A stretch of 64,000 bases of DNA, taken from contig JBJXFN010000129.1 in assembly GCA_046155535.1 (NCBI GenBank), positions 9,659 through 73,658 on the forward strand, written 5' to 3'. Both the position numbers and the translations under genes were made by a program. The notes under the pieces were generated by a model. The model worked only from the letters and a program-made list of their open reading frames with translations. It had not been told where the DNA came from and ran no database searches. The stretch comes from Burkholderiales bacterium. Lineage in GTDB: Bacteria; Pseudomonadota; Gammaproteobacteria; Burkholderiales; JACQAP01. Shown piece by piece: positions 14,433-56,358 of the stretch; position 1 is the stretch's first letter, and every line of letters begins with the position of its first letter.

Positions 14433-14529
14433 GTGACGGGTGACGGGTGACAAGTGACGGACAGGTCAGACTCGGGGCGCGTGCGACGGATTTTCCTTCT
14501 CCTCACGAGTCACTTCTTACTTGTCACTC
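14433..14529. repeat. Tandem-heptamer hairpin element (GTGACGG type)
   Basis: Left arm GTGACGG GTGACGG GTGACAA GTGACGG. Right arm, reverse-complemented: GTGACAA GTAAGAA GTGACTC GTGAG. Fills the whole trm112-kdsB gap. Confidence 0.8.
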
Positions 14530-47445: not shown

Positions 47446-47910
47446 GTGGCAGAAGAGGACGGATCAGTGCGCGCGTCGCAAATACGAATCAAACATAAAA
47501 CTGCAACATGGGGTCGGGGTTTCACGCTGCTCGAGCTGCTGGTGGTCATGGTCATCATCGGCCTGCTGGCCGGCTACGTGGGACCCCGCTACTTTGCGCA
47601 GATCGGCAAGTCGGAAGTCAAGACCGCACGTGCGCAGATCGACGCTTTCGAGAAGGCGCTCGATCAGTATCGGCTGGATACCGGGCGCTATCCCGTCAGC
47701 GATCAGGGGCTTGCATCATTAATGACGAAACCGGACAGTGAAACGAAATGGGCGGGACCTTATCTCAAGAAAGCCGTGCCATCGGATCCTTGGGGTAACC
47801 CTTATGTCTATCGGGCACCTGGTGAGCATGGCGAATTCGATCTGTTTTCGCACGGCAAGGATGGCAAGCCCGGCGGTACCGGTGAAGCCGCGGACATCAC
47901 CAACTGGTAA
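47446..47910 (+). CDS. gspG: Type II secretion major pseudopilin GspG-like
   Basis: Prepilin motif WGRG/FTLLELLVVMVIIGLLA, then GspG body DQYRLDTGRYP...WGNPYVY...GKDGKPGGTGEAADITNW. Start uncertain (ATG at 47446 or GTG at 47467). Confidence 0.85.
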   Translation: MAEEDGSVRASQIRIKHKTATWGRGFTLLELLVVMVIIGLLAGYVGPRYFAQIGKSEVKTARAQIDAFEKALDQYRLDTGRYPVSDQGLASLMTKPDSETKWAGPYLKKAVPSDPWGNPYVYRAPGEHGEFDLFSHGKDGKPGGTGEAADITNW

Positions 47911-52738: not shown

Positions 52739-53292
52739 GTATCGGCACGCGACAGCGCTGGGTTGTGTTGGGCGCCTTGCTTCTGGCCACGCTGACGGCC
52801 GCGGCCTGGGTGAGTGAAGACGAAAAGACCACGTTGGCGGAAGCGGTCGGACACGTGTCGCCTGCTTCGCAAGCGACCGAAGCGCCGCAAAGGTCCGGGT
52901 CGAAACAAAGCGCCGAACCGATGGAAACGCTGCAGATCGAAAAATTGCGCAAGTCGCAGACGGCGCCGATTGCCGGTGATCCCTTCGCGGCCAGGAGCTG
53001 GCGCAAACGCGCCCCGGCGGCAAGGCCGGTGGCGGTGGTTGCCGCGCCGGCGCCGCCCGCCCCGCCCCCGCCCCCGAGCGCACCGCCGCTGCCCTACACC
53101 TATATGGGCAAACTGGTCGACGATGCCGGCATGGCGGTATTCCTGGTGGCGGGTGATCGCAATCTGGTGGTGCGGCAGGGGGAGACTATCGATGCCACCT
53201 ACCACCTGGACAGCGTTTCGGACGCGCGCTTGTTGTTCACGCATTTGCCAACCGGCATCCAGCAATCCTTTCCCATCGGGGAACCGCAGTGA
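52735..53292 (+). CDS. PilP/GspC-like protein (TM, Pro-rich linker, small beta domain)
   Basis: 185 aa. TM WVVLGALLLATLTAAAWV, linker APAPPAPPPPPSAPPLP, C-terminal YMGKLVDDAGMAVFLVAGDRNLVVRQGETID. Confidence 0.5.
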   Translation: MSIGTRQRWVVLGALLLATLTAAAWVSEDEKTTLAEAVGHVSPASQATEAPQRSGSKQSAEPMETLQIEKLRKSQTAPIAGDPFAARSWRKRAPAARPVAVVAAPAPPAPPPPPSAPPLPYTYMGKLVDDAGMAVFLVAGDRNLVVRQGETIDATYHLDSVSDARLLFTHLPTGIQQSFPIGEPQ

Positions 53293-55160
53293 AAAAATAT
53301 GCTCTCACGCATTCCGTTCTGGCCTTGGCGTTGTGGACCCTCGCGGGCGGTTGCGCAACGGACGACGCCTTTTCCCGCGGCAAATCGATGATCGAGGAGG
53401 GGCGGGTCGAAGAAGGTCTGCAGCAGGTCGATACCGTGGCCAGGGCCAATCCGAAGAATGCCGAGTACCGAAGTTATTTCGTGCGCAACCGCGACAACTA
53501 CGTGGACCAGTTGCTGACACAGGGCGACCGGCAGCGCGCGCAGGGCAACCTGGAGGATGCCGCGGTGTTTTACCAGAGGGGGTTGAAGTACGACGAGTCC
53601 CATCCCAGGGCGCAGGCCGGTCTGGCCGCGGTGGCGTCCGGGCAGCGGCAGCGAATTGCCGTGGCAGAGGCCAGGACACTCGCGGAGGCAGGAGACCTGG
53701 AGACGGCGCTGACGAAGCTGCGGGCCGTTCTGGCGGAAAATTCACGGCATGCCGAGGCGCGCGCGCTGGCCCGCGGGTTGCAGGAACAACGCATGAAGAA
53801 ATCGGCGCCAAACGCCACGCTCAAAAGCGCGATGCGAAAACCCGTCACGCTGGAATTCCGGGACGCCCTGCTCAAAAACGTGTTCGACGTGCTCTCGCGC
53901 ACCGCCGGCATCAATTTCGTGTTCGACCGCGACGTGCGGCCGGACATCAAGACCACGTTGTTTCTGCGTAATACGCCGATCGAGGACGCCATCACTTTCC
54001 TGCTGGCCACCAACCAGCTCGAGAAAAAAATCCTCAACGACAATACCCTCCTGGTGTATCCCAACCTGCCGAACAAGCTGAAGGATTATCAGGATCTGAC
54101 GGTGCGCAGTTTTTATCTCGCCAATGCCGACGTCAAACAGACGCTCAATCTGATCAAGACGGTGGTGAAGACCCGGGACGTATTCATCGATGACCGCCTG
54201 AACCTGCTGGTGATGCGCGATACGCCGGAGGCCATCGGACTGGCGGAAAAATTAATCGCGGTGCAGGATCTGGCGGAACCGGAGGTCATCCTCGAGGTGG
54301 AAGTGCTGGAGATCTCCCGAAATCGCCTTCAGGAACTGGGTGTGCGCTGGCCTTCGCAGGTTGGCGTGGGGGTCAATGGCGGCAGTCTGACGTTGTCGCA
54401 GGCGAAGGGCAGCCTGCAGGATCTGACCCAGATCTCCATCACCGATCCGGCGTTCCTGGTGAACTTACGGCAGCAGGATGGCGACACCAATCTGCTGGCC
54501 AATCCGCGAATCCGGGTCAAGAACCGCGAGAAGGCGAAAATCCACATCGGCGACAAACTGCCGGTCATCACCACGACGTCCACGGCCAACGTCGGCGTAT
54601 CGGAGTCGGTCGCTTACCTGGACGTCGGCCTCAAGCTGGATGTCGAGCCAAACGTTTATCTGGAGGACGAGGTGGCGATCAAGGTGGGTCTTGAAGTCAG
54701 CAACATCGTTCAGGAAGTGCGCAGCGCCAACGGCACGCTCACCTACCGCCTCGGGACGCGCAATACGGCCACCACCTTGCGGTTGCGCAATGGCGAGACG
54801 CAGGCACTCGCAGGCCTGATTCAGGACGAAGAGCGAAATTCCGCGGACAAGGTACCCGGCCTGGGAGACCTGCCGGTACTCGGCCGCTTGTTCGGCAGCC
54901 GCAAGGACGAACGCATCAAGACGGAAATTGTTCTGCTCATCACGCCTTACGTCGTGCGCAATATCGAGCGCCCCGACGCTGCCGCCGTGGAGTTTCATTC
55001 CGGCACCGACACGGCCATCGGCAGCCTGCCGTTGAGCCTGCGTAGCGCCGGACCAGGAGCGCTGCCCCAGGCGACACCGGAGGTGCAGGCGGCGCCCCAG
55101 GACGCAACCGCGCCGCAGCCGTTGCCCGAGCTGCCGCCGGCGTCATCGCCGAGTCAGTGA
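53289..55160 (+). CDS. Secretin (GspD/PilQ family) with lipoprotein signal and N-terminal TPR-like region
   Basis: MKKYALTHSVLALALWTLAGGC lipobox. TPR-like helices about aa 30-170. Secretin core NLLANPRIRVKNREKAKIHIGDKLPVITT...PGLGDLPVLGRLFGS...IVLLITPYVV. Confidence 0.85.
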   Translation: MKKYALTHSVLALALWTLAGGCATDDAFSRGKSMIEEGRVEEGLQQVDTVARANPKNAEYRSYFVRNRDNYVDQLLTQGDRQRAQGNLEDAAVFYQRGLKYDESHPRAQAGLAAVASGQRQRIAVAEARTLAEAGDLETALTKLRAVLAENSRHAEARALARGLQEQRMKKSAPNATLKSAMRKPVTLEFRDALLKNVFDVLSRTAGINFVFDRDVRPDIKTTLFLRNTPIEDAITFLLATNQLEKKILNDNTLLVYPNLPNKLKDYQDLTVRSFYLANADVKQTLNLIKTVVKTRDVFIDDRLNLLVMRDTPEAIGLAEKLIAVQDLAEPEVILEVEVLEISRNRLQELGVRWPSQVGVGVNGGSLTLSQAKGSLQDLTQISITDPAFLVNLRQQDGDTNLLANPRIRVKNREKAKIHIGDKLPVITTTSTANVGVSESVAYLDVGLKLDVEPNVYLEDEVAIKVGLEVSNIVQEVRSANGTLTYRLGTRNTATTLRLRNGETQALAGLIQDEERNSADKVPGLGDLPVLGRLFGSRKDERIKTEIVLLITPYVVRNIERPDAAAVEFHSGTDTAIGSLPLSLRSAGPGALPQATPEVQAAPQDATAPQPLPELPPASSPSQ

Positions 55161-55186: not shown

Positions 55187-55396
55187 GTAAACGGTGATCG
55201 GTAAACGGTGAATGGTGAATGGTGAACGGTAAGCGGCGAACGGTGAACGGTGAATGGTGCAAAGCGAACAAGGCCGGAGGAAGACGGTGACAGGTAATGG
55301 GCATCGTTTGAACGGCGATTCAACAAAGCAGTTTGAGAGGACCAGCGTCGCCTTTTCGAGGCCTCCCCGTTCACCGTTCACCATTCACCGATCACC
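55187..55396. repeat. Tandem-heptamer hairpin element (11 left-arm units GTRANNG; 4 right-arm units)
   Basis: 55187-55263: GTAAACG GTGATCG GTAAACG GTGAATG GTGAATG GTGAACG GTAAGCG GCGAACG GTGAACG GTGAATG GTGCAAA. 55366-55396 CCCGTTCACCGTTCACCATTCACCGATCACC is the complementary arm. Confidence 0.85.
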
Positions 55397-55859
55397 ACAA
55401 GCAGGCTTCACCCTGATCGAGCTCATCATCACCGTGGCCATTGTGGCGATCCTGGCCTCCGTGGCCATGCCGCTCACCCAGCTTGCGATCCAGCGCGGCA
55501 AGGAACAGGAACTGCGCACGGCACTGCGGCAGATCCGGGAGGCAATTGACGCTTACAAACAGGCAACCGACGAAGGACGTGTGGAACGCCCCGCCGACGC
55601 TTCCGGGTACCCCTCGAATCTTGAGGTCCTGGCCGCCGGCGCGGATGACATCAAGATGCCGGTGCGCAAGTCGATCTATTTTCTGCGGCGCATCCCGAGG
55701 GATCCCTTCGCGCCGGAAAACATGCCCGCCGCACAGACCTGGGGCAAGCGCAGTTACGCAAGCCCGCCGGAGGCGCCGCGCGAGGGCGCCGACGTTTTTG
55801 ACGTGTTTTCACTTTCCGAAAAGACCGGCATGAACGGTGTTCCCTACAAAGACTGGTGA
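55254..55859 (+). CDS. GspG-like pseudopilin (second copy); start codon and leader uncertain
   Basis: PQAG/FTLIELIITVAIVAILASVAMP then a GspG-like body ending YKDW. No ATG/GTG/TTG within 32 codons upstream of the G/F site. The ATG at 55254 lies inside the repeat arm. Confidence 0.75.
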   Translation: MVQSEQGRRKTVTGNGHRLNGDSTKQFERTSVAFSRPPRSPFTIHRSPQAGFTLIELIITVAIVAILASVAMPLTQLAIQRGKEQELRTALRQIREAIDAYKQATDEGRVERPADASGYPSNLEVLAAGADDIKMPVRKSIYFLRRIPRDPFAPENMPAAQTWGKRSYASPPEAPREGADVFDVFSLSEKTGMNGVPYKDW

Positions 55860-55991
55860 TCGGTGAACGGTGATTGGTGATCGGTGATTGGTGATGGGAG
55901 AATGGCAACAATTGAACGACAGGCGGTCAAGTCTGCATTCGACGGGCAGGGATAATCTTGTCCGTTCACTGTGCACCATTCACCGTTCGCC
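55856..55991. repeat. Tandem-heptamer hairpin element (6 left-arm units GTGAYNG)
   Basis: 55856-55897: GTGATCG GTGAACG GTGATTG GTGATCG GTGATTG GTGATGG. The first unit contains the stop of the preceding pseudopilin. Complementary arm at 55962-55991: CCGTTCACTGTGCACCATTCACCGTTCGCC. Confidence 0.85.
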
Positions 55992-56358
55992 GGTTCCCGG
56001 CTTCACTCTCATCGAATTGCTCGTGGTGATGTCGATCATCGCGCTGCTCCTCACGCTGGCGGCGCCGCGCTACTTTCACAGCACGGACCGGGCGCGGGAG
56101 GCGGTGTTGAAACAGAATCTGGCGCAAATGCGGGATGCCATCGACAAATTTCACGGCGATCGCGGCCGGTATCCAGACCGCCTCGACGATCTGGTCGAGA
56201 AAAAATATCTGCGCCGGATTCCGACCGATCCCATCACTGATTCGCCGGACTCCTGGGTCCGGATTTCGCCCGATGAAGCACAGTCCGGGGGCGTGTTCGA
56301 CGTGCGCAGCGGCGCACCGGGTACCTCCCTGGATGGAACTGCTTACGCAAGCTGGTGA
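55894..56358 (+). CDS. GspG-like pseudopilin (third copy); start codon and leader uncertain
   Basis: PVPG/FTLIELLVVMSIIALLLTLAAP then DKFHGDRGRYP...ending YASW. The ATG at 55894 lies in the last heptamer. The leader would be about 37 aa. Confidence 0.75.
   Translation: MGEWQQLNDRRSSLHSTGRDNLVRSLCTIHRSPVPGFTLIELLVVMSIIALLLTLAAPRYFHSTDRAREAVLKQNLAQMRDAIDKFHGDRGRYPDRLDDLVEKKYLRRIPTDPITDSPDSWVRISPDEAQSGGVFDVRSGAPGTSLDGTAYASW

Follow-up and report, generated by a model that had tools for sequence, protein, structure and literature searches.

We analysed a 64,000-nucleotide (nt) stretch of DNA from a Burkholderiales bacterium (contig JBJXFN010000129.1, positions 9,659 to 73,658; hereafter the window, in whose numbering positions are given) in which two GspG-like pseudopilin genes, lying one after the other behind a secretin gene, each carry a hairpin of tandem heptamers embedded in the 5' end. 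Comparison with orthologous loci indicates that these hairpins, elements 1 and 2, are insertions. We consider it probable that, following the insertions, both pseudopilins are made with long leaders that are encoded in part by a repeat arm and removed at the prepilin cleavage site (G/F), translation starting at canonical codons without any exotic initiation. The elements had been picked out in a sequence-only reading by a model, which proposed either unusual initiation or repeat-mediated control of the two genes.

In each element, tandem GTGAnnn heptamers make up the first arm; after a unique loop comes the complementary arm, which reaches to within 2-3 codons of the prepilin G/F (Table 1). 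Tandem Repeats Finder placed the left arm of element 1 at 55190-55259 (period 7, 10.0 copies, 79% matches); GTAAACG at 55187, which the sequence-only reading had counted as an eleventh unit, is degenerate. An inverted-repeat search paired 55200-55229 with 55367-55396 in element 1 (30 nt, 90% complementary) and 55852-55887 with 55962-55994 in element 2 (27-33 nt, 73-81%). In silico folding of the RNA, which that reading had proposed as a check, predicted long stems at both elements, with -103.3 kcal/mol (z = -3.9) for the element 1 region and -77.8 kcal/mol (z = -5.7) for the element 2 region relative to dinucleotide shuffles. The two composites of heptamer arm, spacer and reverse-complement arm that it had described are real. 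The secretin stop codon lies 27-30 nt upstream of the first heptamer of element 1; the last heptamer of the 5' arm provides ATG 55254, and the 3' arm reads PFTIHRSP in the frame of pseudopilin 1. At element 2, the pseudopilin 1 stop (TGA 55857-55859) sits within the first heptamer, as both the sequence and the list of open reading frames (ORFs) show, and the end of the same arm supplies TTG 55888, GTG 55891 and ATG 55894. Neither element offers a terminator-like site for intrinsic (Rho-independent) termination, the arms being followed by ACAAGCAGGC and GGTTCCCGGC. A promoter scan gave nothing at either element, and no Rfam family matched them, the best hit being a chance small nucleolar RNA with an E-value of 0.18, far under the gathering score.

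Table 1 Positions of the hairpin elements, their host genes and further hairpins discussed in the text (window numbering unless stated)
Feature	Position	Strand	Description
Element 1, 5' arm	55187-55259	+	10-11 tandem heptamers (GTAAACG/GTGATCG/GTGAATG/GTGAACG...); TGA in all three frames
Element 1, loop	55260-55366	+	Unique; GGAGGA (55276-81), GTG 55287 and TTG 55308, all in pseudopilin 1 frame
Element 1, 3' arm	55367-55396	+	Period 7, 4.3 units CCGTTCA (Tandem Repeats Finder); stop-free in every frame
Element 2, 5' arm	55855-55895	+	Period 7, 5.9 units GGTGATC/GGTGAAC/GGTGATT (Tandem Repeats Finder)
Element 2, loop	55896-55961	+	Unique; exposed GGGAG (55896-900), in-frame TTG 55912
Element 2, 3' arm	55962-55994	+	Degenerate heptamers CCGTTCA CTGTGCA CCATTCA CCGTTCG; reads RSLCTIHRSP
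Pseudopilin 1 (GspG-like prepilin)	55287-55859	+	G codon 55404-06; cleavage G/F at 55406/55407
Pseudopilin 2 (GspG-like prepilin)	55894-56358	+	G codon 55999-56001; cleavage G/F at 56001/56002
Secretin gene (TPR, STN and secretin domains)	53289-55160	+	Upstream operon gene; stop TGA 55158-55160 (ORF list)
GspJ, third prepilin gene with an arm	about 14366-14560 of contig C144 (outside the window)	minus	Canonical gsp operon
trm112-like/kdsB junction hairpin	14433-14529	minus	Upstream TGA, GTGAC-type arm, loop, TCAC arm, kdsB ATG

Pseudopilins 1 and 2 scored 35.2 and 31.7 bits with PF07963 (cut-off 21.2) and 32.2 and 29.8 bits with TIGR02532 (cut-off 16.3). With the GspG equivalog model TIGR01710 they reached 34.8 and 55.3 bits, both below the curated cut-off of 88.85, and they are GspG-like paralogues outside the GspG equivalog. 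The gene upstream matched the Pfam Secretin domain at 141 bits and also STN, Secretin_N and TPR, and a prepilin peptidase gene (Peptidase_A24, PF01478; 103 bits) is present in the genome on another contig, C81. In both pseudopilins the G/FTLIE motif is intact and G/F-x-x-x-E is accompanied by a hydrophobic helix; the right arms run into it in frame as ...TIHRSPQAG/F and ...TIHRSPVPG/F, just as the sequence-only reading had translated them (G codons as in Table 1). That the insertions inactivated both genes, leaving decaying pseudogenes, is scarcely credible: this genome has indeed lost the ancestral starts, and its left arms bear stops in all frames, but the mature regions contain no stops and share 67-84% identity with many homologues that have an insertion of this kind, the cleavage motif is undamaged, and in-frame starts are always retained. 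Judged by this conservation, both pseudopilin genes are functional.

That the elements are insertions follows from orthologous junctions. In Methylobacillus flagellatus, the secretin/pseudopilin 1 junction is TAGcATGATG with the leader MMPRQAG/F, and the next junction is TGATG with the leader MPFKHKRG/F; neither carries repeats. A Burkholderiales metagenome-assembled genome likewise has repeat-free GTGA (MKRSSG/F) and TGATG (MKRAG/F) junctions, a third out-of-genus genome, also metagenome-assembled, has leaders of 12 and 9 residues and no repeats, and at eight more out-of-genus loci the nearest canonical start lies 5-12 codons before the cleavage site. Since orthologues outside the genus have tight stop/start junctions and canonical leaders of 5-12 residues, elements 1 and 2 are, on this comparative evidence, insertions that displaced the original starts. 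The match between ...PQAG/F in the window and ...RQAG/F in Methylobacillus places the end of the right arm inside the former leader. Loci of the same genus, gathered by a whole-genome search by genus, have hairpins at the pseudopilin 1, 2 and 3 junctions alike; the unit types differ and include CTCGGCC, GACGAGG, GGTGATT, GTGAGGC, GGACTCA and GCGAGGC. The closest homologue found (L104, 84% identity) has a different unit type before pseudopilin 1 and an orthologous element before pseudopilin 2. The comparison of orthologous loci that the sequence-only reading had called for thus yields repeats within the genus and short canonical leaders without repeats outside it; that the elements entered formerly overlapping junctions, and that they belong to a family spread through the genome and the genus, it had not seen. 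One same-genus genome (G043) holds two copies of the pseudopilin locus, on contigs L194 and L195. Heptamer hairpins and long leaders occur in one of them; the other has no repeats, and its nearest canonical starts give pseudopilin 1 a leader of 10 residues and pseudopilin 2 a leader of 5, a natural comparison of the locus with and without the elements.

We then asked where translation of the extended genes starts. Neither pseudopilin has a short basic leader of about 5-8 residues from a canonical start. The nearest in-frame canonical codons are TTG 55308 for pseudopilin 1 and TTG 55912 for pseudopilin 2, giving leaders of 33 and 30 residues, which bears out the earlier remark that no ATG, GTG or TTG occurs for about 30 codons before G/F. 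The ATG codons were said to give leaders of 37-44 residues, far longer than is usual for pseudopilins of the type II secretion system (T2SS); the length class holds, but the values are 51 residues from ATG 55254 and 36 from ATG 55894. GTG 55287, 6 nt past the strong, correctly spaced Shine-Dalgarno sequence GGAGGA in the loop, had been overlooked. From this codon, its most likely start, pseudopilin 1 would have a 40-residue leader and a 150-residue mature protein, and the database gene call (P0001, 190 aa) also starts at this codon. The start regions had further been thought to be buried in the stem. Those in the last left-arm heptamer are indeed partly sequestered; GGAGGA, however, is mostly unpaired in the predicted fold (probability unpaired 0.81), and so is GGGAG between ATG 55894 and TTG 55912 (0.97).

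The one codon in the conventional position is an ATT 8 codons upstream of F, correctly reported for both genes (55383 and 55978). Initiation there would give 8-residue leaders (MHRSPQAG/F and MHRSPVPG/F) at an equal distance from the cleavage site in the two genes, short and basic as in the out-of-genus orthologues, and bacteria are known to use AUU as a start on rare occasions, infC being an example. Several observations nevertheless make such initiation very improbable. ATT is the complement of part of a common unit variant, GTGAATG, from which it derives; in the gap-free alignment of right arms the ATT of element 2 is GTT in both orthologous copies (L104 and L089); no Shine-Dalgarno sequence precedes it; and it lies within the stem, with a probability unpaired of 0.02 at 55383 and 0.36 at 55978. 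Furthermore, at all 56 prepilin junctions from 22 same-genus loci an in-frame ATG, GTG or TTG precedes the first upstream stop, although the nearest lies more than 12 codons away in 44 of them. In the other two frames at the same junctions, which also cross the stop-free arm, a canonical start occurs in only 65 of 112 cases (58%). Use of a non-canonical codon near the cleavage site would not maintain a distant canonical start and would make this genus-wide retention unnecessary; the 56 in-frame starts therefore argue that canonical upstream starts are used. Unusual initiation, as the sequence-only reading had suggested, is not needed, since the loops provide canonical in-frame starts. The overlapping ancestral start is still present in 12 pseudopilin 1/2 junctions of the genus; in six of these 12 it shares the frame of the gene, with no stop anywhere across the hairpin, the unit types there having no TGA in that frame.

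Slippage of the repeats deserves consideration at this point, because gain or loss of a 7-nt unit by slipped-strand mispairing between the start and G/F would shift the frame and switch the pseudopilins on or off, in the way that CTCTT repeats act in the leader of Neisseria opa. Units of 7 nt do not divide by 3, the 3' arm lies within the reading frame, left-arm copy number varies between species, and in about half of the same-genus pseudopilin 1/2 junctions the ancestral start is in another frame. Yet the coding 3' arms consist of about four imperfect units and not of a long perfect tract, and those of element 2 in the window, L104 and L089 show no indels across the three taxa, so that the reading frame has been preserved. 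All junctions examined are 'on' with some canonical start, and the same elements occupy ordinary intergenic spacers genome-wide. Phase variation is accordingly an improbable account of these loci.

A number of points weigh against long leaders from canonical starts. GTG 55287 is itself base-paired, within a small local stem (probability unpaired 0.05). A strong Shine-Dalgarno sequence at good spacing is lacking for pseudopilin 2, GGGAG standing 11 nt from TTG 55912 and ATG 55894 being preceded by a GGTGAT-type motif only. The nominal probability of about 6e-14 for the in-frame starts at the 56 junctions overstates the support because these junctions are phylogenetically related, though the result plainly points one way. 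The codons actually used are ones that we infer. We know of no report of leaders of 30-50 residues in type II secretion pseudopilins; in type IVb pilins, leaders with 15-30 residues do occur and are processed. Finally, tolerance of N-terminal extensions may be insufficient to explain a strong excess of elements at three tiny leader windows (described below), for which a target preference or positive selection may be needed.

Many homologues (P0012, P0017, P0023, P0027 and others, and pseudopilin 2 of L082, L083 and L084) have Ala and not Gly at -1 (…RA/FTLIEL), an unusual residue for a prepilin peptidase cleavage site. Five homologues (P0109, P0110, P0114, P0115 and P0117) have database calls with leaders of only three residues (MKG/F or MRG/F), and L104 has an in-frame TTG at -3 (TTG GCA GGC/TTC); very short leaders, or miscalled starts, may also be present in the family. 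In another part of the window (47446-47560), a GspG-like major pseudopilin (G/FTLLELLVVM, G codon 47518) likewise has no ATG close to where it is cleaved. The best candidate start is GTG 47467, 7 nt past GAGGA, which gives an 18-residue leader (MRASQIRIKHKTATWGRG/F), and its L093 orthologue has an 8-residue leader (MKTKRHDG/F).

Elements 1 and 2 are copies of a dispersed, lineage-specific family of hairpin repeats with the layout 5'-(GTGAnnn)n, unique loop, (nnnTCAC)n-3'. Scanning the 3.8-Mb assembly for arrays of at least three GTGAnnn units at period 7 gave 88 arrays, against 0-29 for control tetramers, the highest-scoring of which are themselves parts of GTGAnnn units. Unit types in the genome include GTGAACG, GTGACGA/GTGACGG, GTGAAGG and GTGAGGC. 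When the loops of elements 1 and 2 were compared with the genome by BLAST, only heptamer portions were hit and no other copy of either loop. Of 24 genomes of the genus that were searched, 22 contain arrays of four GTGAnnn units, the number of matches reaching about 200; sampling of 16 further families in the order gave none in 14 and a few in two. Most arrays sit between co-directional genes. The 5' arms often begin 0-9 nt past the upstream stop or contain it, and downstream open frames often extend into the 3' arm.

The arrays form 29 inverted pairs (18 with an obvious partner, 10 with a weaker one, and element 2), and the GTGA arm comes before the TCAC arm in all 29, the reverse order being absent. 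G-rich-arm-first order also holds for arrays of any unit. At period 7, GTGAnnn puts TGA in all three frames of the 5' arm, while nnnTCAC cannot contain a stop and leaves the 3' arm open in every frame. The 29:0 ratio points to a polarity that is mechanistic in origin or else to strong selection for an arm with stops followed by an arm with an open frame.

Three candidate explanations for the repeats or their units were set aside. Mobilisation by a RAYT, a transposase of the kind associated with repetitive extragenic palindromic (REP) sequences (REP-associated tyrosine transposase), was rejected: Y1 transposase genes are present, yet none is flanked by arrays, and the three Y1_Tnp genes (PF01797, IS200/RAYT-like; C89:2462-2785, C198:2835-3158 and C208:2287-2493) have no period-7 arrays within 1.5 kb. 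A MITE (a transposable element of the miniature inverted-repeat kind) was rejected on the ground that internal sequence is not conserved among copies, whose loops are unique. The unit GGTGATC of element 2 (55855-55895) can base-pair with the 3' terminal part of 16S ribosomal RNA (…GAUCACCUCCUUA); some 5' arms of the family resemble an extended Shine-Dalgarno sequence and some 3' arms an anti-Shine-Dalgarno sequence. Mimicry of Shine-Dalgarno sites was set aside, as other unit types lack complementarity to that 3' end, and the resemblance of GGTGATC is probably coincidental.

Prepilin genes carry these arms more often than other genes do. A 3' arm occurs at the 5' end of three of 13 prepilin genes, compared with 34 of 3249 genes overall (about 1%; Fisher p = 3e-4). 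The third prepilin gene is GspJ (Table 1). Its GTGACnn hairpin has the GspI stop inside the first heptamer, its 3' arm reaches the GspJ G codon (…SPVTCHPPRVTRHSSLVTG/FTLVEM), and its sole in-frame ATG, in the hairpin loop, gives a 43-residue leader. A cleavable leader is one of few coding positions at which an arbitrary N-terminal extension is harmless, and elements at prepilin 5' ends are probably tolerated because the leader is cleaved off. Insertion may in addition be targeted, since the junctions contain GTGA or TGGTGAT, similar to the repeat units, or it may be selected.

A broader view would regard the heptamer hairpins as an undescribed class of self-spreading or polymerase-generated element that turns coupled genes into independently initiated, hairpin-gated ones. 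Its building blocks would be an arm with stops in all frames, a loop able to carry a ribosome-binding site and a start, and an arm open in every frame. The polarity would permit entry into overlapping stop/start junctions. Since a prepilin leader is cleaved off together with the translated arm, such leaders would be favoured as targets and perhaps under selection as such. Certain copies, for instance at kdsB, may act as folded bridges from a Shine-Dalgarno sequence to AUG. We regard this view as rather unlikely.

The kdsB copy raises a different possibility for the pseudopilins, namely that the folded hairpin brings the upstream stop and a Shine-Dalgarno sequence beside the 3' base of the stem and that terminating ribosomes re-initiate across it; hairpin-bridged ribosome-binding sites of this sort occur at phage T4 genes 38 and 25. 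At kdsB the stop, the hairpin and the ATG abut without a spacer, and GGAGGAGGA stands immediately 5' of the hairpin. Left arms often begin at, or include, the upstream stop, and several other elements end 1-7 nt upstream of a start. Genome-wide stem-to-start distances are, however, noisy and, given uncertain gene starts and fold boundaries, unsuited to quantitative use. The kdsB arrangement suggests that a folded stem could set a Shine-Dalgarno sequence next to the start codon, and that some copies could be bridges. At the pseudopilins a bridge is improbable. Neither gene has a canonical start at the 3' base of its stem, so the bridge cannot apply to them, and the 3' end at pseudopilin 1 has lost the GGGAG present in Methylobacillus.

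We therefore return to long, cleavable leaders from canonical starts, the explanation we favour, and set out how it would work. To judge from the orthologues, the ancestral secretin/pseudopilin 1 and pseudopilin 1/2 junctions would have had overlapping or abutting stop and start codons and leaders of 5-12 codons, and insertion of an element at each would have separated or destroyed the original start. The G-rich 5' arm, with TGA in all three frames, ends any incoming translation, and the pseudopilin frames stay open back into the loop, as no stop can occur in the C-rich 3' arm. Pseudopilin 1 would be initiated at GTG 55287 behind the exposed GGAGGA, and pseudopilin 2 at ATG 55894 (36-residue leader) or TTG 55912 (30), beside the exposed GGGAG. 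The precursors would bear basic leaders of 30-40 residues, the C-terminal third of which is translated repeat arm. Prepilin peptidase would cut at the intact G/FTLIE and leave the mature pseudopilins unchanged, which would explain why elements are tolerated and accumulate at prepilin 5' ends. With a long stem standing between the cistrons, pseudopilin translation is probably no longer coupled to the upstream gene; the stem may also lower or tune that translation, or make the mRNA a target of double-strand-specific processing. These effects are hypothetical. Repeat-mediated translational control or attenuation, the second proposal of the sequence-only reading, is a possible, hypothetical role.

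These leaders would be unusually long for pseudopilins, and the cleavable leader appears to serve as a safe harbour for repeat insertion within a coding region. For annotation, hundreds of 'GspG' database proteins of this lineage have odd N-termini, for example VHRSPFTVH, SPLTPHG and VTVVTVV; these N-termini are translated repeat arms, which gene callers and users should treat as leader and not as mature protein. Strict polarity, the filling of operon junctions from stop to start and restriction to a genus make this family a tractable case for what intergenic heptameric repeats do.

Intergenic heptameric repeats are known from Xanthomonas (GGGAATC), Nostoc and Calothrix (STRR-type, GGGGAYT), Beggiatoaceae (TAACTGA) and Geobacter metallireducens; they are over-represented in several lineages, and their function is not known (PMC4692102, PMC4679880, PMC2700814). 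Some of those in Xanthomonas and Nostoc form inverted pairs (PMC4692102). The present family resembles them in its tandem 7-nt units, over-representation, restriction to a lineage, mainly intergenic location, and variable copy number and sequence among close relatives. Known heptameric repeats often lie a few nucleotides from start codons and some contain TGA, and a few occur as inverted pairs (PMC4692102, PMC4679880, PMC2700814). Here, in contrast, the inverted pair around a unique loop is the rule, and the G-rich arm strictly comes first (29 to 0); a single genome has many unit types side by side, and the 3' arm repeatedly falls within a coding leader. Full-text literature searches found no description of repeats sitting inside prepilin leader-coding sequence.

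An influence on mRNA stability and on how adjacent cistrons are translated is commonly ascribed to REP sequences, their mosaic elements (BIMEs) and REPINs. Like these elements of Enterobacteria and Pseudomonas, the heptamer hairpins are dispersed, form hairpins and lie mostly inside operons between co-directional genes (PMC3116915, PMC2817692). Unlike REPs, which are single conserved palindromes of about 20-40 nt, they are arrays of 7-nt units; and unlike REPINs, which have a conserved spacer and flank a RAYT gene, they have unique loops and none lies near the Y1-transposase-like genes. Neisseria Correia elements are MITEs that are co-transcribed with genes, cut by RNase III, and alter expression of the downstream gene. 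The likeness lies in inverted-repeat insertions in or beside transcription units and in long double-stranded RNA stems; the conserved full-length sequence, TA target duplication and promoter or integration host factor (IHF) sites of Correia elements were not seen here, though the ends of the present elements are themselves repeats, in which a target duplication is not reliably legible.

Among prepilin-peptidase substrates, type IVb and Flp/Tad pilins also have long leaders (about 15-30 residues), but the GspG-like pseudopilins studied here have orthologues with leaders of 5-12 residues, and their extension is a recent by-product of repeat insertion whose sequence is not conserved. As with the CTCTT repeats of Neisseria opa, the stretch that encodes the cleavable leader of a surface-structure gene contains a repeat tract with a unit length indivisible by 3; the tracts here, unlike those of opa, are short, imperfect and part of a hairpin, and show no evidence of copy-number switching. 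By the features tested, the elements are not REPINs, MITEs or terminators. The family is a variant of the known intergenic heptameric repeats, new in its obligate inverted pairs, unique loops, fixed polarity and many unit types.

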